Origin: Cetorhinus maximus
Lineage: Eukaryota
Direction: 5' to 3'
DNA: 64,000 nucleotides
NCBI RefSeq assembly: GCF_964194155.1
Contig: NC_135899.1
Coordinates: forward strand, 92,814,001-92,878,000
The notes beneath the pieces are model-generated. The model saw only the letters and a program-made list of their open reading frames with translations, had not been told where the DNA came from and searched no databases. The translations under genes and the position numbers were made by a program. Shown here in pieces: positions 26,213 to 64,000 of the stretch (positions are counted from its first letter, which is position 1; every line of letters starts with the position of its first letter).

Positions 26213-27174
26213 TCTATCTTTAAATGCAGTGGAAGGTGACCCCACTTCTTTCAACATTTTGCACTTAACCTGTAGGATTTTGACTCATAAGGTTATTCAC
26301 CCAGAATACAGATTATATTAAGCAATCAGAGACCTTTGTAGCAGACCATTTACTTAAACTTGGCTTCAGTACCAGGTAAAAGACATTAGGAAATAAAAGA
26401 TATTAACTTCAATGGTAAGGAACCTAATTGATTAAATACCACTTTCTATACTATCCATTAGAAAAATAAATATTTAACATCAAGGGATGATTCTTTATAA
26501 GAAATGCTTAATACACGCCGCGAATAATCCAGTTACAAAAAAAAACTTCATTTCCGTCACTGGTTCTCTTGCACAGTGTGTTCAAACCTGTGAATTACAA
26601 TTTAAACCACTGAGAAACTCTGCATCAAATACTCATCAATGGTCCTTCAAAGATTTCCTTGATATGTGCCTTATTGCTGAAGCCATTTATAGGTTCATTA
26701 TGTTCAATTCAAAAGCACAATACAACAATTTGCATTCATGTAGGAAAACATTCCAAAGTTCTGTACAGGAGGTTAGTCAGACATAAACTGACATTGAGCC
26801 AAAGAAGAGGATGATAGGATGGGTGACCAAAAGCCTGGTGAAAAGGTTTTCAGAAAGGTCTTAAAGTGGGAGAAAGAGGTAGAAAGGCAGTGCGGTCACT
26901 GGGGGAATTTCAGAGTCTAGGGTCTAGATACCTGAAGGCTTCACAACCAATAGTGGAACTAAATGAATGGGCAATGCCCCAGGGGCCAGTTTAGGAGGAA
27001 CACAGGGTTCTTGGAGGGTTGTAAGGCTGCAGGAGGCTACAGAGATACAGAGGTGAGGCCATGGAGGGATATGAACACACGAGTGGTAATTTTGAAATCA
27101 ATATGTCAGTGGACTGGGAGTAGTGTTGGTCAGTAAGCACAAAGGTGATGAGCAAGCAGAACTCAATACAGGTC

Positions 27175-28178
27175 AGTCATCTCAGCTCCAGGACATCATT
27201 GCAGGAGTTCCTCAGGGTAGTGTCCTAGGCCCAACCATCTTCAGCTGCTTCATCAATGACCTTCCTTCCATCATAAGTGGGGATGTTCGCTGATTGCACA
27301 ATGTTCAGCACCATTCGCAACTCCTCAGATACTGAAGCAGACCATGTCCAAATGCAGCAAGACCTGGACAATATCCAGGCTCGGGTTGACAAGTGACAAG
27401 TAACATTCGTGCCACACAAGTGTCAGGCAATGACCATTTCCAACAAGAGAGAACCCAACCATCACCCCTTGATGTTCAATGGCATTACCATCACTGAATC
27501 CCCCACTATCAACATCCTGGGGGTTAACATTGACCTGAAGCTGAATGGGACGAGCTACATAAATACTGTGGCTACAAGAGCAGGTCAGAGGCTAAGAATC
27601 GTGCGATGGGTAACTCACCTCCTGACTCCCCAAAGCCTGTCCACCATCTACAAGGCACAAGTCAGGAGTGTGATGGAATACTCTCCACTTGCCTGGATGA
27701 GTGCAGATCCCACAACACTCAAGAAGCTGGACATCATTCAGGACAAAGCAGCCCGCTTGATTGGCACCACATCCACAAACGTTCACTCCCTCCATCACCG
27801 ACGCACAGTAGCAGTGTGTACCATCTACAAGATGCACTGCAGGAATTCACCAAGGCTTCTTAGACAGCACCTTCCAAACCTTCAACCACCACCATCTAGA
27901 AGGACAAGGGCAGCAGATAGATGGGAACACCACCGCCTGGAAGTTCCCCTCCAAGTCACTCACCATCCTGACTTGGAAATATATCTCCGTTCCTTCACTG
28001 TCGCTGGGTCAAAATCCTGCAACTCCTTCCCTAACTGCACTGTGGGTGTACCTACAACACATGGACTGCAGCGGTTCAAGAAGGCAGCTCACCACCACCT
28101 TCTCCAGGGCAACTAGGGAAGGGCAATAAATGCTGGCCTAGACAATGACACCCACATCCCGTGCATGAATGAAAAAAA
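27175..28178 (+). mobile_element. 5'-truncated CR1/L2-group LINE (RT C-terminal half and 3' tail)
   Basis: GVPQGSVLGP and FAD motifs; ORF 27409..28116; A-rich tail. Confidence 0.88.
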
Positions 28179-28189
28179 GGTTAGAATAT

Positions 28190-36459: not shown

Positions 36460-39380
36460 ATGTCACAGAGAAGAAAGCAACTTTTGGCCCCACGGTTCAG
36501 TGAAGCCTCCCCAGAGATTCTCCCTGGAGATTCTCCTCCAGGCCGTCCAGGAAAGGTGGGAAGTGCTGTTTCCTCAGGATGGCAGCAGGAGGCCCTCCAG
36601 TCTGACCATGGCGGCCTGGACAGAGGTCACAGTGGTGGTTAGCACCCGGGGGCCCAAGAAAGGACTGGCCAGCGGTGCAGGAAGGGGATGACTGATTTGC
36701 TGCATTCCGCATGGTAATCATACTCTCCACTCACTACAAACTCACACTCTCATAAGGACATCAGGCAGTCTAAGGGTTAGCATGCACAGGGATGTCACAC
36801 AATACCTGCACTTGGGACATCAGCACTGAATGTGCCAGCCACTTTAAGCTCTCAATCTCATATCAGTTGCAGGACAAACGGCTTCTTAACCACTGACTGG
36901 GGAGGGCTCAGCAGCTGCAATAGGCAATGCATGCTCCTGAACTGCTCATGCACCTATTCACCCACATTCAATCCTTCTGTCTTTCTGCAGGAGAAGAACG
37001 CCCACAAAAGAGCTGAACCCCCAAGGTGAGGTGAGAGTGACTGTCCTTGATATCAAGGTTCAGTTGACCGAGTGGGGCATCAAGGGGCCCTAGCAAAGCT
37101 GGAGTCAATGGGAATCAGGGGGAAAACTCTCCGCTGGTTGGAGTCATACCTAGCACAAAGAAAGATGGTTGTGGTTGTTGGAGGTCAGTCATTTCAGCTC
37201 CAGGACATCACTGCAGGAGTTCCTCAGGGTAGTGTCCTAGGCCCAACCATCTTCAGATGCTTCATCAATGACCTTCCTTCCATCATAAGGTCAGAAGTGG
37301 GGAAGTTCGCTGATGATTGCACAATGTTCAGCACCATTCGCGACTCCTCAGATACTGAAGCAGTCCATGTTCAAATGCAGCCAGACCTGAACAATGTCCA
37401 GGCTTGGGCTGACAAGTGGCGAGTAACATTCGCACCACACAAGTGTCAGGCAATGACCATTTCCAACAAAAGATAATTCAACCACTGTCCCTTGATGTTC
37501 AATGGCATTACCATCACTGAATCCTTCAATGTTAACAACCTGGGGGCTACCATTGACCAGAAACTGAACTGGACTAACCATATAAATACTGTGGCTACAA
37601 GAGCAGGTTAGAGGTGAGGAATCCTGTGATGAGTAACTCCCCAGAGCCTGTCCACCATCTACAAGGCACAAGTCAGGAGTGTGATGGAATACTCCCCACT
37701 TGCCTGGATGAGTGCAGCTCCCACAACACTCAAGAAGCTTGGCACAATCCAGGAAAAAGCAGCCCACTTGACACCACATCCACAAACATTCACTCCCTCC
37801 ACCACCGACTCACAGTAGCAGCAGTGTGTACCAACTACAAGATGCACTGCAGGAATTCACCAAGGCTCCTTTGACAACACCTTCCAAACCCACAACCACT
37901 ACCATCTAGAAGGACAAGGGCAGCAGACAGATGGGAACAAGTTCCCCTCCAAGTCACTCACCATCCTGACTTGGAAATATATCATCGTTCCTTCACTGTC
38001 GCTGGGTCAAAATCCTGGAACTTCCTCCCTAACAGCACTGTGGGTGTACCTACACCACATGGACTGCAGCGGTTCAAGAAGACAGCTCACCACCACCTTC
38101 TCAAGGGCAACAAGGAATGGACAATAAATGCTGGCCCAGCCAGCGACACCCACATCCCGAGAGTGAATAAAAAAGAAGGGAGTGGGCCAAGACTGGAAGG
38201 GGAATGGCAGAGATCAGAGTCCTCACCCCTTATGAGGAACAGGCCACTAAGCTAGCCGGGGAAGAGCGGGGCCATTCCTGTGCTGAAGGTGAGGTAATAC
38301 TCTCCAGGAAGCCATGAGGATGCCATCAGTCTGCAGTTGTCATATGCATGCTGTGAGCCCTCTTTAAATTATGAGCCTGCTTGGTCAATCACTAAATCTT
38401 TCTTTTCTCTATTCCAGGTACCAGCAGAAAATGGGGAAGGACTGCAACCCGGATCAGCCACAGCTCCAGCCCCAAACCCACTTCTGTAGAGGATGCCTCA
38501 GAATCCTCAGAGGATGCACATTCACCCTGGCTTTCACCTGCACCCCCCACCAGCGCAGATACACTCACCTCGGAGGATGCACATTCGAGAGTAGGCTCCG
38601 GGTCACAACCTGGTGAGCACATCACCGATGGGGGGTTCACAGCTGGTGGAGGAAGTGACAGTCGAGGGCTCTGAAACTCCGAGCACTGCTGGAGAACAGG
38701 CCCCTGCTCAGCCCCATGTAGATGATGAGCCTCTGGATTCGGCCCTGAGAGATATGTTGGAGGATGCAGAGCCAGGCAGGGGGACATCAGACAGAGATAC
38801 CAGACGCCAAGCGCAGACTGGACTGGAGGCTGGAGGAGTCTGTCCACGTTCTGTCTGATGTTGTGGCTCCAGCATGTGAGCACTTGGCTGCCTCCAGGGA
38901 ATGGGTGGCGGCCGCCTTGAAGACCCAGGTCCAGCAGAATGAACAGTTCCTGCCGGATATGCACTGGGAACTGTACTCTGTCACTATAGGCACTGGTACA
39001 GTGCACCAGTGGCCAGGTGACAGATGAATTGGGCACCTCAACCTCCCTCCAGGGTCAGGGAGGTGGCATTGGGCACCCACAGGTGGAGAAGCACCAGCCA
39101 GGCACTCCAGGGTCTTCATCCCAGTACGCTCCAAGAGTGCCTTGCCACTCTACCTCTACTCTGCCACTGACCCCATCGCCTCCAGAGGGTCAAGCCTAGG
39201 AGGGTAGAAGCACCTGAAGCTGAACTAGAGCAGGTTGGGGCCCTCGAGGCCCTTGGGCCACCAGAGGACCCCACCAAAGTCATTACAGTCAACAGGGCAT
39301 AGCAGTCACCAGGCTACCTCCACTTCAGCTGTGGGTGTCAGGGCTGTACCTAGATGTAGCGGTAGGCAATGAAAAATTAA
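36460..39380 (+). pseudogene. Harbinger Myb/SANT-like DNA-binding protein gene, spliced and disrupted
   Basis: APRFSEAS / LEILLQAVQERWEVLFP...AAWTEV (frameshifted); exon 2 EKNAH...REWAKTGRGMAEIRVLTPYEE is split by a LINE; 3' end approximate. Confidence 0.7.
37006..38176 (+). mobile_element. Same LINE family inserted into the Harbinger Myb exon 2
   Basis: ORF 37072..37476 has GVPQGSVLGP...FADD; highly similar to 27175-28178; possible AAAAGA TSD. Confidence 0.88.
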
Positions 39381-44099: not shown

Positions 44100-45605
44100 G
44101 CCACTATTTTTAATTCCTCTCTGGCCATGGGGAAGGTGCCAGAGAACTGGAGAACAGCTAATGTGGTTCCGCTAGTTAAGAAGTGTTGTAGAGATAAGCC
44201 AAGGAACTACAGGCCAGTGAGTCTCACGTCAGTGGTAGGGAAACTATTGGAGAAAATTCTGAAGGAGAGAATCTATCTCCACTTGGAGAGGCAAGGTTTG
44301 ATCAGGGGTAGTCAGCATGGCTTGGTCAGAGGGAGGCCATGCCTAACAAGTTTGATTGAATTTTTTGAGGAGGTGACCAGGTGTGTAGATGAGGGTAGTG
44401 CAGTTGTTGTAGTTTATATGGATTTCAGCAAAGCCTTTGACAAGGGGTCCCACATGGGACACTTATAAAGAAGGCAAATGCACATGGAATACAGGGTAAT
44501 TTGATAAGGTGGATTCAAAATTGGCTTAGTTGTAGGAGACAGAGGGTGATGACAGGAGGCTGCTTTAGTGACTGGAAGCCAGTGTCCAGTGGCATACCAC
44601 AGGGATCTGTGCTGAGTCCCCTATTATTTTTCATTTATATAAACAACATAGATGACTCTGTGGGAGGTAGGATTAGTAAGTTTGCGGATAACCAGGTGGT
44701 TAACAGTGAGGTTGAATGTCTTGGGCTACAGGAAGATATAGATGGGATGGTCAAATGGGCAGATAAGTGGCAGATGGAATTTCACCCTGAAAAGTGTGAG
44801 GTGATACACTTTGGAAGGAGTAATTTGACAAGGGAGTATTCAATGAATGGCATGACACTAGGAAGTGCTGAGGAACAAAGGGACCTTGGCGTGTGTGTCC
44901 ATAGATCTCTGAAGGCGGAGGGGCATGTTAGTGGGATGGTGAAAAAGGCATATGGGACACTTGCCTTTATCAATCAAGGCATATATTACAAAAGTAGGGA
45001 GGTCATGTTGGAGTTGTATAGAACCTTGGTGAGGCCACAGCTGGAGTAGTGTATGCAGTTCTGGTTGCCACATTATAGGAAGGATGTGATTGCACTGGAG
45101 GGGGTGCAGAGGAGATTCACCAGGATGTTGCCTGGGATGAAACATTTAAGTTATGAAGAGAGGTTGGATAGACTTGGGTTGTTTTTGTTGGAGCAGAGAA
45201 GACTGAGGGGCGACCTGATCGAGATGTACAAGATTATGAGGGGCATGGACAAGGTGGATAGGGAGCAGCTGTTCCCCTTAGTTGAAGGGTCAGTCACAAG
45301 GGGACATAAGTTCAAGGTGAGGGGCAGGAGGTTTAGGGGGGATGTGAGGAAAAACATTTTTACCCAGAGGGTGGTGACGGTCTGGAATGCGCTGCCTGGG
45401 AGGGTGGTGGAGGCGGGTTGCCTCACATCCTTTAAAAAGTACCTGGATGAGCACTTGGCACGTCATAACATTCAAGGCTATGGGCCAAGTGCTGGTCAAT
45501 GGGATTAGGTAGGTAGGTCAGGTGTTTCTCACATGTCGGTGCAGACTCGATGGGCCGAAGGGCCTCTTCTGCACTGTGAGATTCTGTGATTCTATGATTC
45601 TGTGA
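44100..45605 (+). mobile_element. CR1 LINE, 5'-truncated
   Basis: NYRPVSLTSVVGK, YMDFSKAFD and PQGSVL motifs; (ATTCTRTG)n tail at 45581-45605. Confidence 0.93.
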
Positions 45606-50668: not shown

Positions 50669-52203
50669 ATTCTGAAGGAGATAGCTGAAGAGATAGTGCG
50701 GGCGTTAGTGGTGATCTTTCAGGAATCACTGGAGTCAGGGAGGGTCCTAGAGGACTGGAAAATCGCTAATGTAACCTCCCTGTTTAAGAAGGGAGTGAGG
50801 CAAAAGACGGGAAATTACAGGCCGATTAGCCTGACCTCGGTCGTTGGTAAGATTTTAGAGTCCATTATTAAGGATGAGACTTCAGAATACTTGGAAGTGC
50901 ATGGTAAAATTGGGCAAAGTCAGCATGGTTTCATCAAGGGGAGGTCATGCCTGACAAATCTGTTAGAATTCTTTGAGTAGATAACGAGTAGGTTAGACAA
51001 AGGAGAGCCAATGGATGTTATCTACTTGGACTTCCAGAAGACCTTTGACAAGGTGCTGCACAGGAGGCTGCTCAGTAAGATAAGAGCCCATGGTGTTAGA
51101 GGCAAGGTATTAGCATGGATAGAAGATTGGCTGTCTGGCAGGAAGCAGAGAGTGGGGATAAGGGGGTCCTTCTCAGGATGGCGGCCGGTGACTAGTGGAG
51201 TTCCGCAGGGGTCAGTGTTGGGACCACAACTTTTCACTTTATAGATCTAGATGAAGGAACTGAGGGCATCTTGGCTACGTTTGCAGATGATACAAAGATA
51301 GGTAGAGGGACAGGTAGTATTGAGGAGGCGGGGAGACTGCAGAAGGATTTGGACAGGTTAGGAGAATGGGCAAAGAAGTGGCAGATGGAATACAACGTGG
51401 GTAAGTGTGAGGTCATGCACTTTGGTAGGAAGAATAGAGGCATGGACTATTTTCTAAATGGGGAGAGAATTCAGAAATCTGGAGTGCAAAGGGACTTGGG
51501 AGTCCTAGTCCAGGATTCTCTTAAGGTTCACTTGTAGGTTGAGTCGGTAGTTAGGAAGGCAAATGCAATGTTGGCATTTATTTCGAGAGGACTAGAATAT
51601 AAGAGCAGGGATGTGCTGCTGAGGCTTTATAAGGCTCTGGTCAGACCACATTTAGAATATTATGAGCAATTTTGGGCCCCGTATCTCAGGAAGGATGTGC
51701 TGGCCCTGGAGAGGGTCCAGAGGAGATTCACGAGAATGATCCCAGGAATGAAAGGCTTAACATATGAGGAACGTTTGAGGACTCTGGGTCTATACTCGAT
51801 GGAGTTTAGAAGGAGGAAGGGGGATCTGATTGAAACTTACAGAATACTGAAAGGCCTGGATAGAGTGGACGTGGGGAAGATGTTTCCATTAGTAGGAGAG
51901 ACTAGGACCCGAGGGCACAGCCTCAGAGTAAAGGGAAGACCTTTTAGAACAGAGATGAGGAGAAACTTCTTTAGCCAGAGAGTGGTGAATCTATGGAATT
52001 CATTGCCACAGAAGACTGTGGAGGCCAGGTCATTGAGTGTATTTAAGACTGAGATAGATAGGTTCTTGATTGGTAAGGGGATCAAAGGTTTTGGAGAGAA
52101 GGCGGGAGAATGGGGTTGAGAAACTTATCAGCCATGATTGAATGGTGGAGCAGACTCGATGGGCCGAATGGCCTAATTTCTGCTCCTATGTCTTATGGTC
52201 TTA
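50669..52203 (+). mobile_element. CR1 LINE, 5'-truncated, relatively young
   Basis: NYRPISLTSVVGK, GVPQGSVLGP and FADDTK motifs; TCTTATGG-type tail. Confidence 0.93.
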
Positions 52204-53519
52204 ATTTACACTCCCAGTTTATGAGTCTGAATACATCTGTACCTTTCACTTCATCGACTTACCTCACTGCGAGTTCAGGTTGTGCTGACCGGAAATTAGA
52301 CTGGAGAACTTTGGCTCTGCCAACATTGATCTTGAGAAACCTTTGGTCCATTCAACAGTTCGTGTAGGTCATGTATTAATCATGCTTGTTGGTTTCCACG
52401 TGTGTTGAAGACAGAGCATTTTAAGAATCTGTTTTACAATCTTTGACCATGACTAGGGTGAGGTTGTTTGGGTGATGCACTTACTGTAATCAAGCAGCCA
52501 GGCTCAATAATGAGCTGCAGAAAACTGGGGCTAATGACCTTGGCTGCATTGAAAGCTCACTCAGTTTGAAAATGTATCCATAATTGTAATTATTCTTCAC
52601 AGAGGCAAGAAACCAGTGCTTGTAAAATAAGGGCTTTAACTTTTTGTCAAACCTGCCAATCAAACGTTTCTTTACTGTTGACTTTATCATTGTTCATGAG
52701 AACTGGAACATTCCTGAGAGAGGCTAGAATCACCTTGCACTGACTGGACTTTCCACATTCCACTCTTAGTGGCAAATCTCTAACGTTTTGCATTAACCAA
52801 TCAGGACTTTTTGCATTTATACCTAACTACCCGAACCTGCATTTATAAATCTGGTATTTGATATATTACATACAATACCTTACAGATCCAAAATCTACCT
52901 CCTATCCAAGACATTCATTACTCTTGGATTATATGGATGAATCACTGGTAAAAGAGTTTCTGTGGCAGCCTGTCTAACCAGTGAGTAGCTGAGTCATAAG
53001 GACGACGCAATCCTTAGAATTGATCTATGGCCTCTCTGAACTGGGGTGGTACTAGGGGCCCTGCAGTTGGAGAAAATAGCCCTGAAAATTATTCACACCT
53101 GTCCATTAGCAAACAATTGTTGCATTGTGTGGACAGGATCAGTTCAAAATCCCAGCTCAGAAAGCCAAGTGACACCCACCACTGTGAATAATGCTGAGCA
53201 CTGGATAAGATGCACAAGGACAAGTATGGCAGTGCACCCTACCAAATTCACATGTTCTGCAGAAGGAAGGGAGAAGAAAATTGATGGAGGAAAATGTCAG
53301 GAAAATGCAGTCAATAGTCCGAAATTCCTATTCATATTCGGATCTTAGATATATTTGCAGAGCTAAATGTGAAAGATGAATTGGATATTTCATGGAACAG
53401 TTTTACTGAGGATGCACACCTGAATTTATGCGAATCACTATTCAAATCTCAATGGGTTTCCTTCAAGCTCTGATCAATTGTTATTTATAAGAAGAAAGGT
53501 TGGTTGTTCTCCAATTTTT

Positions 53520-54188
53520 TTATTGTTCTTTACTGGAGAGAGGCTGCTTATACTGAAAAACACAGTATTTTACAAACAAATAGCACAGTTCAGCAAGATT
53601 CAACAACATGCATACAGCTGAAGTCACTAACATGAAAATTGTACAGATTGTTTTCTCTGTTGGCCTAGAAACGAAGCAATCCACAATATTAGGACAGGGA
53701 TATTCACTGCATTTGACAAGTCTGAGCATCTTGTAGCCTTTATAAATCCAATAAAATAGGTACATAAAGACAGCTTCAAATGACATTTTGAAGAAAATGC
53801 TGACCAAGTAAGTTCGAAGAAGAGGGGCATCGATTTTTACTTTCTGCAAATCTGCATTTTGATGAAAGATTTTTATATTCTTCTTGTGTTTTTTTCTTTG
53901 ATGAACATGCATACCAATGAGAAATGACGGAATGGACACAAAGAGGAGCTGGAAAACCCACAGCCTGATGTGGGAGATGGGGAAGAAATGATCGTAGCAC
54001 ACATTCCTGCAACCAGGTTGCTGTGTGTTGCACACAAAGTCACTCTGTTCATCTCCCCATACAGTCTCAGCTGCCACCACCAAGACCAGGACACGGAAAA
54101 TGAAAACAACTGAGAGCCACACCTTCCCCAGCGGCGTTGAGTACTTGTTCACTCCACCCAGCAGAGACTGAAGAGAATGCCAATCCAT
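53520..54188 (-). CDS. Beta-group connexin, GJB2/GJB6 (Cx26/Cx30)-like, short-tailed copy, 222 aa
   Basis: MDW..LQ.LLGGVNK.ST start, [22 protein letters not shown] and C...[16 protein letters not shown] loops with all six Cys; splice acceptor 11 nt before the ATG. Confidence 0.93.
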
Positions 54189-55297
54189 TTTGGATCACCC
54201 TAGGAATAAACAGCACCAGTTACTTTACTGCAGATAGGAATCTGGTAAGAACGTGAGAATTGCTGAAAAAAAAGGTCCCTCCAGTTCACCTGCTACCATC
54301 CTGTTAGTTGCATGATTCAAGGATAATAGAGTATTGATTCGGCACAGCGATCAATTTCTACCAATTGGTCTATAGCAGTACCAGAGATGAGGCGATATAT
54401 ACCTCAGTGGAATGTTTGAGCAACCATCAACCAAAAGTCACCTGTTCCTCCAAAGCATGCTACACTTGCTCATGTCATGTCTCAATTTACCCATATGCTC
54501 TATCCCCAAAATATCTACTTCCCAAATTGTAAATGTTGTTATTTAACTATAAATAATGGTATTAAACTTCCTAAACTAATTAAAGCCATGAGCAGAATCG
54601 GTGCAAAATGGGTGGGGATTTGACATAACTGATCTCCACCCTATTTTCTGATTGATGACACTAATCCACGTGTAAAACATGTACCCTGGTATGTCTAAAT
54701 GTTGATGAAAAAATCATGGTTGGCTGACGTAGCTGGTTATCAAAACCTCATGCCTTTCCAAATATGTTAGCATCAAAACTAAAACATCAACATGGCAACA
54801 CAAGGGATGTTCTGAAATTCCTTTTGGTACTGGGTACTGCTGCAGATTGTAGATACATGGTGGAAGCCTGAACTTTCACACATTGTGAGTTCCTAGTCAC
54901 AGCAGGAGCTGGTACTAAATAAAGGTGAGGTTCTTCACATAATGGGTGGGGCGGGGGGAGAGAACATCAGCAGAGAGAATGTGAGAGCGTTGGCTGTCTC
55001 TACTCCCTGTTAGCTGATTAACAGAGGTTATAGAATATCAATAGGTTGGTTGTTCCATCAATTCCAAATCAGAGGTTTAAAATTCTGATCCTCTCAGTTG
55101 AAAGCTTAAATTTAACAAGGCCAACAAGAACTCCACTGGAGATTAGATGCAAACTGCTTATCAGCTGGATTTAAACATCTATCACACCAAACCTCCAGAA
55201 ACCAGGTTAGATACCCACTTTTGGAATATTAACTGTGTATCCATCACTGCAAAGGAAAATAGCCACTTGTCCATCAAACCAACACAGAAAATAAAAC

Positions 55298-55530
55298 ATA
55301 TGTAGGCCAAACCAGGTGAGGATATTTCCTTCCCTAAAGGGCATTAGTGAACCAGATAACAATTAGTGATAGTTCCATGGTCACCATTACTGAGACTAGC
55401 TTTACATTCCAGGTTTATGAATTGAGTTTAAATTCCACCAGCTGCTGTGGTGGGATTTGAACCCATATCCCCAGAGCATTAACCATGGCCTCTGAATTAC
55501 TAGCCATTACTACAATGTCACCATCTCCCC
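55298..55530 (-). mobile_element. tRNA-derived SINE, same family as 49700-50027
   Basis: Shared TTAGTGAACCAGAT, GTCACCATTA.TGAGACT and GTGGTGGGATTTGAA blocks. Confidence 0.65.
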
Positions 55531-57519
55531 ACAAATAGCAGTCAGCGCCAGCAGGATCAGTAGCAGCTGCTTATATTGTGCCCAGCAAAAGGCCTAGGAT
55601 CACCAATGGACCCAGGCCACAGATGAGTGAGGGTGGGATAAAGGGCACGGGGTGGGTGCCATGAGAGACGGGGTGAAGGAGCAAGGGTGGTGATCTCAGC
55701 AGGGCGGCCCCCCCTTCCCAAAGCAGGCTCCCTCAATCTGGCAGAATACCTTTGAATGAGAGACTCCCATCTGGGAGCCTGCAAACAAACATGGCAGGGT
55801 TTTACTTTTCAGGCTCCACACATGGCGAGTCACTGCTTGCTGCTCGATGAATACCAGTAGTGGGATAAAGCCCTTAAATGGGTATTAATTAGGACTGGAT
55901 GGGAAGGCTGTCCACCAGCCTGCCTGCCCCAGACTTAATCAAGGCAGGAGCTGGAAGGTAGTGGGGTCCCCACCCTGCACCTCCTAGCCCAATTAAATCC
56001 ACCCATCGCCTCCAAACTCGCCTTAGGGAAGGTATTAAATTTTGCTCCTTCATTTCCAAGCTCAGATATAATCCAATGCACAGTTTAATTTAAACAAAAA
56101 CATTTTATTGTAACATATAATCATATTTAAAGCCTTAGGTACAGTACATTCCAAAAGGTTCACTGTGCTGTCACTATTCCAACAAGCATAACAATGTGTT
56201 GCATATTTCAGTTATATCTTACATAAGCCTAGGAGTTGAAGTCATTCAGCTTCTTAACTCAATCTCCAGGCAACTAGGCTGTCCTCATGGGCTACAGAAT
56301 AATGGAGGGAAAACACTTTGGATCCATTCCCCAGGCAAAAGAAAGAAAGACAGAGAAAATCTGAAAACTTACTCATAAATATGGTTCTAAGATACCTTCC
56401 GTTTTCCTCAAAAAAAAATGACAGGTTGGGTGTAAACTGTGCCAACTATGTCACAGAGCACATTTGACTAATGGAACTCCTAATGTGTCTGCAAAATTGC
56501 AAACTCTGCATGGTTTTTGCATTCCAAGTCTTTGTGAATCAATAGAATAACAAACCTTGACTGAAAGTAGAATTTGTATTTTCATAATCTGCTACATCAA
56601 AGACTTGCCTTTTTCCTATTGTTCACTTTTCAACAATCAGTCATCACACAAGAGCTAGGGCAACAGACCAAAGAGGAGCTTAGTGTAGCTACACTTATTG
56701 AACTTTCCACATCCCACTGTTAAAGACACTTTCATATTGAAGGAATGCCAACAGCAACAAATTTGCAGCACTGCCACCATTGGCAGCATATTCAAAATAA
56801 AAGACCTGAAGCTCTGGACATCTAAAAGAAATGCAGACCCAGGTTTTCAGAAGTCATCCACACAGATGTAAACTTTAGCAGCCAGATTCCCACCTTCAGC
56901 TGCTAAAACCACAGGTTTCAGCCTCCAACAGTTGCATGTGAATTGGCATCAGGAAATATGACGATCAAGAAAAAGTAGTGCATAGAAGTTATGGGCCACA
57001 GTGTGAATGTGCTCCATGGACCGCCTATGGCAGGTTCTACTCCTTTATACCTCAACCTTTGCTCATTTACATGAACATCAAGCAAATCCTCGTTATCAGG
57101 TATTTAAGGCACAATTATCTGGTTTCGTATAAAACTGCATTTAATCTAGTTCTCTGGTACTCTGACATACATCTTCCATTCAAAGCATCGGGCTTCTAAT
57201 CTGCTTCAGGTTCCTTATCTTCGTTGTGTGAATCGCTTTATCTATAATCCTTCTTTATTTGGTGGATATATTTGACAGAAGTCGCGTTCCAGAGGTCTAC
57301 ACAGCATTACAAAAAATGCAGTGATCGCATGCTCACAAACGTAACATGTAACAGTGACAAAAGGAATAATCTGAAATAAAAATAAATACAATGCCTAAAA
57401 GTTGCAAGTTTATCATTTCTTCCTGATAATATTTCATTGCAAAGTCACACTATGATCGGTTGAGCCATGAAATATGTGCATATTGTATAATTATAAATAA
57501 TTCAGAAATCATTGTCTTT

Positions 57520-58296
57520 TTAGCATATGGAAGTGTGATCTGAACTGCTGTTTTGATCATCATCGAATTTTGATGTGCTGATATTTGAGGAACTAAGAGC
57601 AACCGTTAATTTTTTGTCTTGTTCATTGCTCTCTGCTGCAGAATGCAAGCTTTGCGTCCATTGCATAATGCAATACTTTACAATCAAATAGCACAATTCA
57701 GCAACATTTAGCAAGATGCATACAGCTGAAGTCACTAACATGAAAACAGTAAAAATTGTTTTCTCTGTTGGCCTAGAAACGAAGCAATCCACAATATTAG
57801 GACAGGGATATTCACCGCATTTGACAAGTCTGAGCATCTTGTAGCCTTTATAAATCCAATAAAATAGGTACATAAAGACAGCTTCAAATGACATTTTGAA
57901 GAAAATGCTGACCAAGTAAGTTTGAAGAAGAGGGGCATCGATTTTTACTTTCTGCAAATCTGCATTCTGATGAAAGATTTTTATGTTCTTCTTGTGTTTT
58001 TTCCTTTGATGAACATGCATACCAATGATAAATGATGGAATGGACACAAAGAGGAGCTGGAAAACCCACAGCCTGATGTGGGAGATGGGGAAGAAATGAT
58101 CGTAGCACACATTCCTGCAACCAGGTTGCTGTGTGTTGCACACAAAGTCACTCTGTTCATCTCCCCAAACAGTCTCAGCTGCCACCACCAAGACCAGGAC
58201 ACGGAAAATGAAAACGACTGAGAGCCACACTTTCCCCAGGGATGTTGAGTACTTGTTGACCCCATTCAGCAGGGAATGAAGGAAATACCATCCCAT
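57520..58296 (-). CDS. Beta-group connexin, GJB2/GJB6-like, long-tailed copy, 258 aa
   Basis: Same connexin motifs as the other copy; Ser-rich C-tail; splice acceptor 11 nt before the ATG. Confidence 0.93.
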
Positions 58297-60029
58297 TCTT
58301 GATCACTCTAGGAATAAACAGCACCAGTTACTTTACTGCAGCAGGAAATCTAGAATTTATCTACAGATCGCTTTAAAAATCTGTGCATGTATGCATTTCT
58401 TGCTCAATTTCTAGTGCTGATTTTTGGCCACACTTTTATGTTAGCATTCAACAGTGAAGCTGCCTTGTCTAATATTTACAGCAGAAATCCTGTATGTAAA
58501 CAGTTTATTGTCACAACGTTGCTGCAGACTCTGGCTGGTAGGTAGCTCCGTGGGACAAGTTTGTTTGAATCACGATTACTGCATGTGGTCTGTTGACAAA
58601 TGGACTGTTCTGTTAACTATGGAGCTACGAAGACTAAGATCATGGCCAAAATTTCCCACATTGTGAACTTCCAATCTCTATGGCAACTAACTAATGCCAC
58701 TGCAGGAAAATGTGAATGTTCTTTACATAGAGGAGAGAAATGTAGCAGAGAGAAGAGAATCCTATCTTCAGCTGCATTCCCTTGCCATCTCCTGCGATAT
58801 CTGATTAACAAACTGTCTAAGGGTTGTGTGTGAACTGCTCTTCTTCCCAGTTAGAGGTTTGAAAAATCTGAGAAAATAAAGGTTATGTTCTCTGTAAGTA
58901 CCTGAAAGGTATCTGTGGTATAACAATTTAAATTATTTGTGAGCACAACCTTGTCCTAATATATTTCTGGTCTTTATTTAACATCTGCCTATCTCTCTTT
59001 AACTTTCACAGTTTGCCTTTCAGGAATCTGTGATTATTTTGGTTTATTACACATTGCAAAATATATTTTTCTTTCCAACTTTCTGTGCTCCTGAAGCTGA
59101 TGGCTTTTGCTGGGTATGGGTCTATAGGATTTGGCACCCCTCCAGTCCCATGCCCAAGTGGTCATTTCCCATGTATATGTCAGCAAGCTATTTGATTTGT
59201 GCAGTCAAATCAGCACAAGATACTGACATTTCTGTAAGATGTCATTATTATATTTAATTTAAAAGGTAAGATGAATAACTTTTGTTTAAACGATGCATGT
59301 TGCAACAAGATCATTGTGATGTTTCCTATTTTAAAAGGTGATGTAACTTGACAAAACATTTTTCAACAGTTTTTAAAAATTAATAATATTCAAGATAAAG
59401 GTGGAAACTTTAATCACATGCAGCTTCGTTCAGGACCAGGTGATGCCAGGACCCTGTGTCTGACCAGGAGACTAGGCTGGGTTGAGCTACACAGAGATGT
59501 GAATGACAACCCAACGTTGTTAACTGCACCAGAATCGACAAATTCATTATTAAAAACTATAAAAATTCACTTTAAATATCTGCGCTGTTATTCCATCTAA
59601 TTCTGCCGGAGCCTGTCAAATATAAAGGAAACAGATCATTTTTAAAATTCAGCTGTTGTGCAAGATTCTAGGGTCCAGTTTTCAGGAGAGATGGCTGTTG
59701 ATTGTCCCAGGAACTAAATCTTCTGGATAACTCCTTAATGTGGCAATAACAATTCCTTAATTATAAAACATTCCGAGTTTTCAGTGAAACAAGCTAAGCT
59801 GAGATTTTGGCAGCAGGTCCCAGGTTTAAAGATGCTCAGCCTGTTTATTACAAAATAGCTCCCATTATATTTTGCAAGAATCGCTGAAATCCACAATGTT
59901 AAAAAACGTACTCCTTGTGAAGACTTCACAGAGCCCAGTGTTATGTTCATCTCTATTATATTTAGGTAAGAACTAAACTTCATGACATAAAGATCTGAAA
60001 ATCAATATAGGCAAGTGAATAGGTGCTGG

Positions 60030-60450
60030 TCTTGGTTCAAATATAGAACATACATCTCTGAGTTAGAAGTTCGTAGGATGAAGCCCCATCCAGAGACTTG
60101 AGCACATGATGTAGGCTGCCAGTTCAGCGCAGTGCTGACGGAGTGCTGCACAGTTAGAAATGCTGTCTCTTGGATGAGTTGCTAAACGTCTTCCCCTCTC
60201 AGGTGTTCTAAAAGATTGCTTAGCACTATTTAAAGAAGAGTAGGGGAATTGTCCTGCCCTTCATTTGTCTCTCAGTCATAATCATTAAAACAGAACATTT
60301 TATCATTTATCAAATTATGGTTTGTGGGATCTTGCTGTGCACAAACTGGCTGAATGTGTATCCCTATATTATATCAGTGAGTACAAACATCCATTGTGAA
60401 GTTTGTTCTGGACATTCCAAGATTGTGAAAAACACTAAATAAAAGCAGCT
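60030..60450 (+). mobile_element. Deu-domain SINE, more diverged
   Basis: GCACTATTTAAAGAAGAG...GGGATCTTGCTGTGCACAAACTGGCTG shared with the other copies. Confidence 0.65.
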
Positions 60451-60940
60451 TCATTTGTGGGATTATTTGAAAGTGAAAAGTAATCTACTCATTTGAACAA
60501 TTTCTCAAACTAGCCCCTTCTGTTCAGACATTACATTATACAGCTACATCTGTACTTCAACAGATCCAGGTCAATGCAACAACAAATACTATGACAGATA
60601 ATAACTGCAATTTCAGATAGAATTAGATGTTTATTGGGAAACTGGACTTCCACCTTTCTTTTCTCAAAATTGTACTATTCAATAGTGGCTTTTTAAATTA
60701 AAAATAAATATGGTGCGGCGAAATATATTATTGAACACAGACTCCTTAAACAGTCCAAATAAAACATTACATACACAATGAAAAGCTCCATTGTGCAATT
60801 TTGGAAAAAAAAATGGATTATATAAACATGCTAATGCACTAATCTCCTGTTCAGACGAGGGCCACATTTGTGTTACAAATTAACATGTAGTAGGCTCATA
60901 TGTGTGTCTACCTTGAGATTGTGACTCAAACCTGGGCTTC

Positions 60941-61147
60941 CATAAGACCATAAGACATAGGAGCAGAAATTAGGCCATTCGGCCCATCGAGTCTGCTCCG
61001 CCATTCAATCATGGCTGATAAGTTTCTCAACCCCATTCTCCCCGTAACCTTTGATCCCCTTACCAATCAAGAACCTATCTATCTCGGTCTTAAATACACT
61101 CAATGACCTAGCCTCCACAGCCTTCTGTGGCAATGAATTCCATAGAT
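60941..61147 (-). mobile_element. Young CR1 3' end
   Basis: Near-identical to the reverse complement of ~51990-52203 apart from a short deletion. Confidence 0.85.
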
Positions 61148-61868
61148 ATTCCAAGGTTCCTATACTCAACATTCAGTCAAGGTCGTGATTCCATGGGCTA
61201 TTTCCACCCACCTAATTATGGCAGATCATAAAGTGGTATCTGGGCTTGCCAGCAGTGCATGGAAAACACTATAGTTTGAGAAAACCGTAAAGAGATAAAA
61301 GTAACAATAATCATAAAAGTAAAGAAAAAAAACACTGATTTAAGAAAAAGAAAAACAAATGACTAATAATAATCAGTTAAATAAAGCAAAAAATAGAATA
61401 CCCTTTAACAATGCTTTTCGTTTATTTAAAATGGTCAGCTAAACATCACTCAACTTTTACACAATTATAATGGGTGTCACTGTGTAGTAGTAAGTTTCAC
61501 ATTCTCACCACTCTCTGGGTTAAAAAGGTTTCTCCTGAATTCACTATTGGATTTATTAGTGACTGTCCTATATTTATGACCCCCCTACTGCTGGAGCTCT
61601 CCACAAGTGGAAACCTCTTTCTACGTTTACCCTATCAAAACCCTTAATCTTAAAAGACTTTAATCAGGTCACCCCTCAACCTGCTCTTCTCGCAAGAAAA
61701 GTGCCCCAGCTTGTTTAATCTTTCCTCTCCATTCTGGTGCCAGCTTGCAACTATTTTCAAAAAGATCATTAAAGGCAAACATTTGTGGGCAAATATATCT
61801 TTCTATAACCAGATGAGTTGTAGTTTTTATCCACAAAACTCACAGACCATAAAATAAATTCTGCTTAC

Positions 61869-61982
61869 CTTGTTCTAAATTTAGAATTGGAATAAACTGT
61901 AGAAAGTGCTGAGTGAAAACGCCATCTGCAATATCACAGCCTGATATCTAAACCCAAATGAGGGAGCTTTTTTCCAATGTGC
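61869..61982 (-). other. Candidate non-coding 5'UTR exon of the connexin locus, copy 1
   Basis: Minus strand: T-rich tract, tag|GCACATTG ... GAACAAG|gtaagc; stop codons in all three frames. Confidence 0.5.
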
Positions 61983-62839
61983 CTATAATCAGAAGCAGAA
62001 TCAGTTTGAAATAAAACCCAAAGAGGCAACAGCAAATGAAGAATGTAGGTGGACTGGCTATAAAGGAACATTGTTCCTCTTAATGTTCTTCTATTGTTCC
62101 TCTGAAGCTACAAAGACATCATTCTACACTAATTTCCTCTTCCCTGCATTCTCACTGTACAAACTCAGGGTTTGTTTCCAACCCTAACTAATTCTTTCAC
62201 AAGGGCTTGAAACTGTGGAAGACCTTATATTCCTCAGTTATTCCTTTCTCCTGCATACAGACTTTCAATATTCAAATTTGTGGTAACTCTTTGTTGAAAT
62301 CTCTCAACTAAATGGACATTCGGCCCAGCTGAGCTAGGTTGGAGTTTATGCTCCACACGAATCTCCTCCTAGTCCTCTTCAGGTAATCCTATCAGCATAA
62401 CGTTCTATTCCTTCTTCCTGTATTTATCCAGCTTCCCCTCAAATCATTCTATACTATTTGCCTTAACCACACCCTATGATAGTGAATTCTACGGGTGAAG
62501 AAGTTTTACCTGAATTCCAATTAGGTTTATTAGTGAATGTCTTGTATTTATGATCCCTAGATTTGGCCTCTCCGCAATTGGAAACATCCTTTCTGTGTTT
62601 CCCTGTCCAACCCCTTCTTAACTTTAAAGACCCTTAGTTTTCACTTTTCTAGAGGTAAGAACCCCAGCCTGTTCAATCTTCCCTGGCAGTTAACCTCTCA
62701 GCTCTGGTATCATCCTTCCAGGTCTTTTTTTAAAAAAATGACTGAAGGCAAAAGTTTGGGGGGAAACGTTATTTCTATATTAGATGAATTGTATTTTTAA
62801 TCCACAAGAATCACAGGGCATAAAATAAATTCAGCTTAC

Positions 62840-62955
62840 CTTGTTCTAAATTTAGAATTACAATTTCACTGCGGAAAGTACTGGGTGAAAAGATCATCTG
62901 CAATATCCCAGGCTGATGTATAGACGGAAACCAGGGAGTTCTTCATGCAATGTGC
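62840..62955 (-). other. Candidate non-coding 5'UTR exon, copy 2
   Basis: Paralogue of 61869-61982, 971 bp away, with the same acceptor and donor contexts conserved. Confidence 0.5.
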
Positions 62956-63659
62956 CTATTTCAGCTACAGAACCAGTTGAAATAAAAAAAGACAAAAGGT
63001 ATCCACGAATGAAGAATGTAGCTGGACCAGCTATGAAGAAACCATCAATCTCCTACGGCATTATGACATATTTGAAATATGGCTCAAACAAATTCTGGAA
63101 AAGCATTGTCACCTTTGGCATCACAAACTCCTCATTATGGTATATTAACACCGGCGTGTAATTATTAGTGAGCTGTTTGGAAGTAATGCAGATCCTTTTT
63201 AAATGCAGAGTAATGGGTGGCCAGGGTTGCTGATGGAAGTACATTCTTATCATTTTTGGGAGAGAGATGCAGCGTCTCCACATTGTACCAAATAATATTG
63301 ATGGAAAACTTCCTGTTAGCACTTTTAGTGCTCTTATTTTGAGATGGTTGGAAGTAGATTATAAGGAAACTGTGCAGTTGATATTCAGTCACAATAGAGT
63401 TTTTTTTTCCTTAAGATGGCGAGCTTTATTGTTAATCTCCTGACAGCCAATTGGTGGAAGAGGAGACCAGAAGACAATCTTTACACAGTTTTGGACTTTA
63501 TTCACAAGGTGGAACATCACAAATATATAGCTAATAGTTATTTGGTAGTACAGAACTTGAGTATTGCTGAAAAAGAGACATGTAGAAGCTTTTCATTTTG
63601 CACACCAGGACACTTGGTAAGAACACTAATACAAGGGGGAAAAACAATTTATACTGTAT

Positions 63660-63830
63660 GTGAAGTAAGTGCTGATTTGTTGGCATGGATTCTGATTGGT
63701 AGAGGCATTGCCATGGAGAATGCACCCGTGATGGTGGCTGACAGTTAACTGCCAAGCATTGTTTGAAATTTAAACCAGGCAGCTTGATCCTGATTGGTCA
63801 AGGCATTGCCCTGAGGAATGAGTCAGCGAA
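63660..63830 (+). repeat. Unclassified dispersed repeat, also at ~1290-1420
   Basis: Shared CTGATTGGTAGAGG..TTGCCA.GGAGAATGCACC...ACAGTTAACTGCCAAGC blocks. Confidence 0.65.
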
Positions 63831-63919
63831 TGGCTGGCACTTATTTTGTTTGGCTGAAACAGGCGCAATGTGTCTACATGTTCTTTCTGGCTGCAAAGTA
63901 CAGGGCCCCGTGTATTAAT

Positions 63920-64000
63920 GGGGAGAATTTTCTCTCTCTTGAGGACGGTTGGATGGGAACGGGCGGGCGCATAGCCGATCACCGCCCGTGATCAACTGCG
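63920..64000. mobile_element. Start of a second copy of the 8626 MITE family
   Basis: GGGGAGAATTTTCTC...GGCGGGCG...GATCAC shared with the 8626 copy; runs off the window. Confidence 0.6.

Follow-up and report, generated by a model that had tools for sequence, protein, structure and literature searches.

The locus and the identity of the pair

The window (64,000 nucleotides (nt) of Cetorhinus maximus, contig NC_135899.1, positions 92,814,001 to 92,878,000; positions given without a contig are those of the window) contains two connexin frames of 222 and 258 amino acids (aa) on the minus strand, identified here as gjb11.1 (short copy) and gjb11.2 (long copy). Both had been proposed from the letters alone (the sequence-only reading), and both are real: each matches PF00029 (273-276 bits; Pfam). 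They encode beta-group connexins with four helices and six extracellular cysteines (support of the beta clade: 100/100). The features of the locus are collected in Table 1.

The sequence-only reading took the genes for a Cx26-like pair. Phylogeny, start sequences and locus replace this by gjb11.1 and gjb11.2 of cartilaginous fishes, not Cx26. gjb11 is a chondrichthyan-only connexin named by Mikalsen et al. 2021 (PMC7914757; this and the other papers are cited for their accessible parts). The two whale shark genes, Rt-gjb11.1 and Rt-gjb11.2, share one contig (PMC7914757 supplement). Their N-terminal start sequences and tandem layout equal those of the window pair, and the start and length of whale shark gjb11.1 are matched by the short copy. 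The gjb11 proteins of the window and of skate, ray and chimaera form their own clade (100/99) outside GJB1 and gjb8/GJB2/GJB6; the latter group is a clade without gjb11 (97/95). A position of gjb11 as sister of the Cx26 group is not rejected by the approximately unbiased (AU) test (p-AU 0.15). Protein matches above 70% identity (single-domain) are chondrichthyan throughout among the 120 listed of 1087, and the closest relatives among the matches listed are at 71-94% identity.

The genome-wide connexin search gave 42 matches. The pair is found at C22:92.87 Mb; the same chromosome carries a gja9-like gene (64.4 Mb), a gja4-like gene (60.96 Mb) and a gjb3 cluster (60.66-60.89 Mb). The order, long (.2) then short (.1), and the placement close to the end of the chromosome with gja9/gja4/gjb3 agree with Table S6 of PMC7914757. 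Synteny refers to connexin positions alone; names of loci of this genome are taken from tree position and from that Table S6. The Cx26/30 orthologue of this genome is gjb8 (L003, C7:49772584-49773276), on a different chromosome and beside GJA3: it lies 20 kb from the GJA3-like L015 and, in the columns used for the tree, is identical to Carcharodon gjb8. In the family tree, L004 clusters with GJB1. Cx26 orthology of the pair is ruled out by gjb8 beside GJA3, by the tree clades and by the chromosome placement. The database label 'gap junction beta-2-like' is corrected by the gjb11 assignment. The genes themselves are already known; their conversion, residue-2 contrast, tails and upstream exons are not described in the accessible part of PMC7914757. 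No functional or conversion study of gjb11 was found in the literature searched, subscription papers and bioRxiv supplements being outside its coverage.

Table 1. Features of the gjb11 locus. TM: transmembrane helix. UTR: untranslated region. Contigs X1 and X6 are from other species.
Feature	Position	Strand	Basis
gjb11.1, short copy, 222 aa, single coding exon, starts MDWHSLQ (Asp2), ends SSKEQ-stop	53520..54188	-	frame, PF00029
gjb11.2, long copy, 258 aa, single coding exon, starts MGWYFLH (Gly2)	57520..58296	-	frame, PF00029, whale shark match
N-terminal divergence island, short copy, codons 1-13	54150..54188	-	72% DNA identity to long copy; copy-specific in 19 species
N-terminal divergence island, long copy, codons 1-13	58258..58296	-	same comparison
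Homogenised core, short copy, codons 14-180 (TM1-TM3, both extracellular loops, cytoplasmic loop)	53649..54149	-	DNA comparison, tree
Homogenised core, long copy, codons 14-180	57757..58257	-	DNA comparison, tree
Short C-tail, codons 210-222 and stop	53520..53561	-	41% DNA identity to long copy
Long C-tail, codons 210-258, Ser-rich, no proline, W213 in 19/19 long copies	57520..57669	-	protein alignment
K116 codon (Cx26 K125 register)	short 53841..53843; long 57949-57951	-	K in 41/41 gjb11
N104 codon (Cx26 R104 register)	short 53877..53879; long 57985-57987	-	N 40, D 1 of 41 gjb11
Likely branch point, pyrimidine tract and acceptor of short exon (AG 54201-54200)	54189..54233	-	42/45 nt identical to those of long copy
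Branch point, pyrimidine tract and acceptor of long exon (AG 58309-58308)	58297..58341	-	X6 contig exits coding exon at 58309
Non-coding upstream exon 1b, donor AAG/GTAAGC, GT at 61868	61869..62216	-	joined to long exon in X6 contig
Duplicate upstream element 1a, same donor, GT at 62839	62840..63042	-	72-77% identical to 1b
Likely 3' UTR of long copy, ends near AATAAA at 56109	56104..57519	-	X1 contig covers 56140-58257

Homogenised cores, divergent ends

The copies share a single block of 671 nt at 94% identity (53563-54233 vs 57671-58341), composed of 45 nt 5' of the ATG and of the frame to about codon 209. DNA identity by segment is 72% in codons 1-13, 88% in codons 14-24, 98% in codons 25-180 (9 differences in 468 nt), 85% in codons 181-209 and 41% in codons 210-222. 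In codons 1-13, 11 of 39 nt differ and 5 residues are changed; synonymous differences are likewise concentrated there. This island is flanked by the upstream block (42/45) on one side and the 98% core on the other. The longest identical run, 131 nt, was equalled in 82 of 20000 uniform placements. No similarity between the copies was found by blastn past codon ~209 or in the flanks; local alignments of the flanks score 67 and 66 vs maxima of 48 and 41 for simple shuffles. The description of the pair as 'differing mainly in C-tail length' does not hold: codons 1-13 also diverge, at 72% vs 98% in codons 25-180. The N-terminal difference left out of that description is conserved as strictly as the tail.

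Long and short copies are both present in 19 shark and ray species (18 named and the window). Pairing was by species name and length; the copies are shown to be adjacent in the window, whale shark, Amblyraja and Chiloscyllium only, and the whale shark short copy is absent from the protein set. One gjb11 copy was obtained for Callorhinchus. In residues 14-180, identity is 97.4% within species vs 87-88% between orders, and the paralogue is nearer than every other-order orthologue in all 19 species. This pattern is found in 0/19 species for residues 1-13 and 210-222 and in 3/19 for TM4. The core tree joins the copies by lineage, with a short clade rejected (AU, p=2e-31). Long and short separate (96/98) in the terminal tree, which has 26 columns and 39 rows and does not include the chimeric or aberrant-tailed Pristis and Heptranchias short sequences; there, joining the lamniform copies is rejected (AU, p=6e-5). 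The pair thus shows the pattern of concerted evolution: paralogue nearer inside the tract, orthologue nearer outside it. Because the core is nearer to the paralogue and the ends are nearer to the orthologue, the pair is an old tandem duplicate whose cores have likely been homogenised by recurrent gene conversion. The split of sharks and rays is dated to ~250 million years ago or more. The pair is a natural chimera experiment, in which a single channel body has borne two different N-termini and two different tails since that split, and would be a very long-lived case of gene conversion within a single exon. Mammalian pairs with conversion over >100 million years have been described (PMC2720389).

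Independent, recent duplication of gjb11 in each lineage would also pair the copies within lineages in the core tree. It is hardly credible: the copy-specific N-terminus and tail are common to the 19 species, the terminal tree contradicts it, and the copy order is identical in the window, skate and bamboo shark. A decaying or artefactual short copy is scarcely more credible. It would fit the repeated frameshifts in the tail, the single Pristis gene with long start and short tail, and the fact that spliced short mRNA was not seen in the contigs searched, but the frame is open in 19 species, D2 is invariant and the acceptor is intact.

Departures from the general pattern were found in three species. 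Pristis pectinata has a single gjb11 with a long-type start and a short-type tail; such a chimera is the expected product either of unequal crossing-over or of assembly collapse. The short copy of Heterodontus took residues 7-13 of the long copy and retains D2; its TM4 is identical to that of the long copy. The long copy of Carcharodon has short-type P19 and TM4 residues. The Heterodontus short and Carcharodon long copies are read from their residues as lineage-specific extensions of the tract.

The short tail extends 22 residues past the TM4 Glu, as in gecko Cx26; the long tail extends 58, without proline. Short copies have 220-229 aa in the 19 species: 222 in all ten galeomorphs examined, 227-229 in the sawshark and two skates, and 220 in four other batoids. 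Their tails are 22% identical between orders. The stop at 222 is therefore not an assembly error or a private allele. Its conservation in other sharks had been named as a check on the claim that the short tail arose by a local nonsense or indel event. On the origin itself the results are ambiguous. The in-frame register assumed by that claim is favoured by the window DNA (15/21 nt vs 12/21 for a 5-nt frameshift register), whereas the tails of other species favour the +1 frame past the stop (SPVKNNKK), the best match in 7 of 9 comparisons; this signal is weak, with one comparison at shuffle p<0.01 and a frame-0 query shorter than the +1 query. Callorhinchus also has EQ at this point. Since the sawshark and two skate short copies end at 227-229, the tail had become short before it was trimmed to 222, whichever register is used. 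Truncation to 220-222 aa is repeated in galeomorphs, Rhinoraja and stingrays; within Mobula, the short copy of M. birostris continues to 229 and that of M. hypostoma stops at 220. A natural short/long pair with a short tail independent of amniote Cx26 is thus retained from the sequence-only reading, and its membership in Cx26 is not. Nor would such a Cx26 pair outside amniotes be new: that of Latimeria has been published and tested (PMC6726660).

Predicted gating, doubtful CO2 sensing and possible shared first exons

Residue 2 is Gly in 19/19 long and Asp in 19/19 short copies; positions 4 and 5 also differ between the copies in all 19 species. The number of acidic residues within residues 1-13 is 0 in all 19 long copies, 1 in the 12 shark short copies and 4 in the 7 batoid short copies. 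Long N-termini are 94.5% identical between orders, above the identity of the core. In Cx26 and Cx32, the charge of residue 2 sets the polarity of gating by transjunctional voltage, a polarity that acidic residues introduced ahead of residue 12 can reverse (PMC4276742). N-terminal charge (M1/D2) shapes heterotypic rectification (PMC2229461). Where conversion acts, peaks of divergence are recognised as pointing to sites under selection (PMC3924837), and the two different ends are likely kept apart by selection.

The preferred reading, given a probability of about 0.6, is that gjb11 is an old pair homogenised by conversion, whose ends are likely kept apart by selection and whose products are predicted to be docking-compatible channels with opposite gating polarity and different tail regulation. 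The short hemichannel, like Cx26 D2, would close on positive transjunctional voltage; the long one, like Cx32 N2, would close on negative. Identical loops and helices would keep both subunits able to dock and to co-assemble. From opposite polarity it would follow that junctions rectify where one cell expresses the short copy and its partner the long copy, and that mixed short/long hexamers gate in both directions.

Several points weigh against this reading. The gating polarity of gjb11 is a prediction by analogy with Cx26/Cx32. Gly2 probably means removal of the first Met, which would make the analogy with N2 imperfect. Co-expression or adjacent expression of the copies is an assumption, and the contigs searched gave no spliced short-copy mRNA. 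Conversion was examined on proteins across species and on DNA in this genome alone; the 19 species are related and are not independent events; the terminal tree is small, with 26 columns and two rows omitted. Mechanical causes can also keep the ends of conversion tracts divergent, and splice function may be what retains the 45 upstream nt.

An unlikely, though not negligible, alternative is that conversion is real but something other than gating accounts for the difference at the ends (trafficking, turnover or binding of partners by the tail; signals for translation or splicing close to the acceptor; mere escape at tract edges). Both ends do flank the tract, TM4 is intermediate (85% at the DNA level, 3/19 species), short tails vary freely between orders, and synonymous differences accumulate in codons 1-13 too. 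The between-order identity of the long N-termini points instead to constraint at the protein level, the adjoining upstream 45 nt are at 42/45, and the batoid short copies gained three further acidic residues.

The sequence-only reading had proposed a motif like that of CO2 carbamylation. QKVKIDA is indeed present in both copies, with K116 in the K125 register, and the two caveats attached to it are borne out: N104 lies at the position of Cx26 R104, and the loop is 9 residues shorter than in primate Cx26. In the anchored register, K116 is invariant. Position 104 is never basic; K103, one place off, is found in 39/41 gjb11. In 41/41, position 108 (Cx26 K108 register) holds F or I and another residue stands in place of G130. 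The motif is thus half present in gjb11. Among the other connexins of this genome, Lys at 125 is found in 9/16 and a basic residue at 104 in 15/16; this motif count and the family tree cover 16 of 24 other connexin loci retrieved from this genome. K104, K125 and G130 are all present in 11/11 named shark gjb8 and in L003, whose 53-residue tail has two prolines. Studies of CO2 in sharks would be better begun with gjb8, the bearer of the whole motif. Of two further loci of this genome, the GJA10-like frame L016 (C5:101084434) has only 321 codons, and L010 (C4606), an alpha connexin rich in GC, lies on an unplaced contig of small size.

According to Dospinescu et al. 2019 (PMC6726660), CO2 opening needs the motif together with a short or proline-bearing tail, and the short copy of Latimeria is CO2-sensitive. 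A CO2 switch, in which carbamylated K116 would bridge to a nearby Lys, the short tail would permit opening and the long proline-free tail would block it, is doubtful. It is consistent with the invariant K116 and a Lys-rich loop, with tail lengths that fit the published rule (PMC6726660), with the trimming of short tails to 220-222 in several lineages and with the redundant lysines used by Cx43 (PMC13233067, PMC11870076). K103 may also derive from position 104, given the one extra residue that Callorhinchus has in this stretch. Against it, R104 is essential for the CO2 response of Cx26 (PMC13233067, PMC11870076), and 104 (N/D), 108 and 130 depart from Cx26 in every gjb11. Lys at 125 is widespread in this genome. 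In the structure model (monomer; predicted local distance difference test (pLDDT) 72; TM-score 0.83 to Cx26 8qa2), TM2 ends at residue 100 and pLDDT is below 50 for residues 107-119, so the placement of K116 and 104 is unreliable. Fish blood PCO2 (CO2 partial pressure) is ~5 mmHg, well under the 55-70 required (PMC6726660). The N-terminal island is left unexplained. The CO2 switch and opposite gating are not exclusive and can both hold.

Upstream exons were sought in X runs, which are contigs of other species; their RNA label is a guess. The long frame and its 3' region are covered by contigs from two other species. An X6 contig runs through the long exon to 58309, then through 61969-62216 and its duplicate, with offsets that fit a splice from donor 61868 to acceptor 58308. 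The upstream sequence is a tandem element (61517-62069 and 62493-63042, 72% identical), each copy with a strong minus-strand donor; it partly overlaps a common repeat. The genome search found two copies only of the exon 1a/1b element, and no exon-1 copy was found between the coding exons in the window. The 1a and 1b donors are two of the three donor-like sites scoring 8/9 within 54200-64000. With two exon-1 copies and none between the coding exons, the short exon therefore shares the first exons or starts elsewhere. Short-copy cover is lacking in X1, X6, X13 and X23, which is not evidence of silence. X2 contigs tile 57395 down to 52800, including the intergenic stretch and the short gene and excluding the long frame; the first piece begins at the G of TTTTAG (57395), which may be an extra acceptor.

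A tentative and improbable extension is that gjb11 is one transcription unit, with two first exons spliced to either coding exon. The voltage-sensing N-terminus and the tail would then be swapped together, giving a switchable rectifying junction whose short form might be opened by CO2 via K116 and K103. Sharing of first exons is opposed by the sources, which name the copies as separate genes, and by the X2 contigs, which cross the short acceptor unspliced.

The window also contains long interspersed nuclear element (LINE) fragments and, between the two connexin genes, a high-copy short repeat (27170-28180, 37108-38179, 44549-45508, 51365-52203, 55320-55510); RVT_1 matches were found in two of the four frames scanned among the LINE fragments.

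Comparison with known systems

The pair can test directly the natural use of the Cx26/Cx32 residue-2 polarity rule and of the tail rule. It can also test whether CO2 gating demands a basic residue exactly at 104.

The nearest system is gjb11.1/gjb11.2 itself (PMC7914757), with which the window pair agrees in start sequences and lengths, in tandem order and in its neighbours on the chromosome. Cx26 (GJB2) and Cx32 (GJB1) likewise contrast Asp with a neutral residue 2 on the same fold, at ~60% identity. Unlike these, the gjb11 contrast sits on a 97-98% identical core within one locus, in a separate lineage whose loop is 9 residues shorter and which has N104 and lacks G130. The short Cx26 of Latimeria and amniotes (PMC6726660) has a similar short tail beside a long-tailed paralogue, and a Lys in the K125 register; these genes belong to the gjb8/GJB2 locus, carry K/R104 and G130 and respond to CO2, whereas gjb11 is without both residues. 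Red/green opsins, BMP8A/B, DDX19A/B and TUBG1/2 resemble gjb11 in having a tract where the paralogue is nearer together with local peaks of fixed differences; unlike theirs, the gjb11 tract lies inside one coding exon and is longer-lasting.

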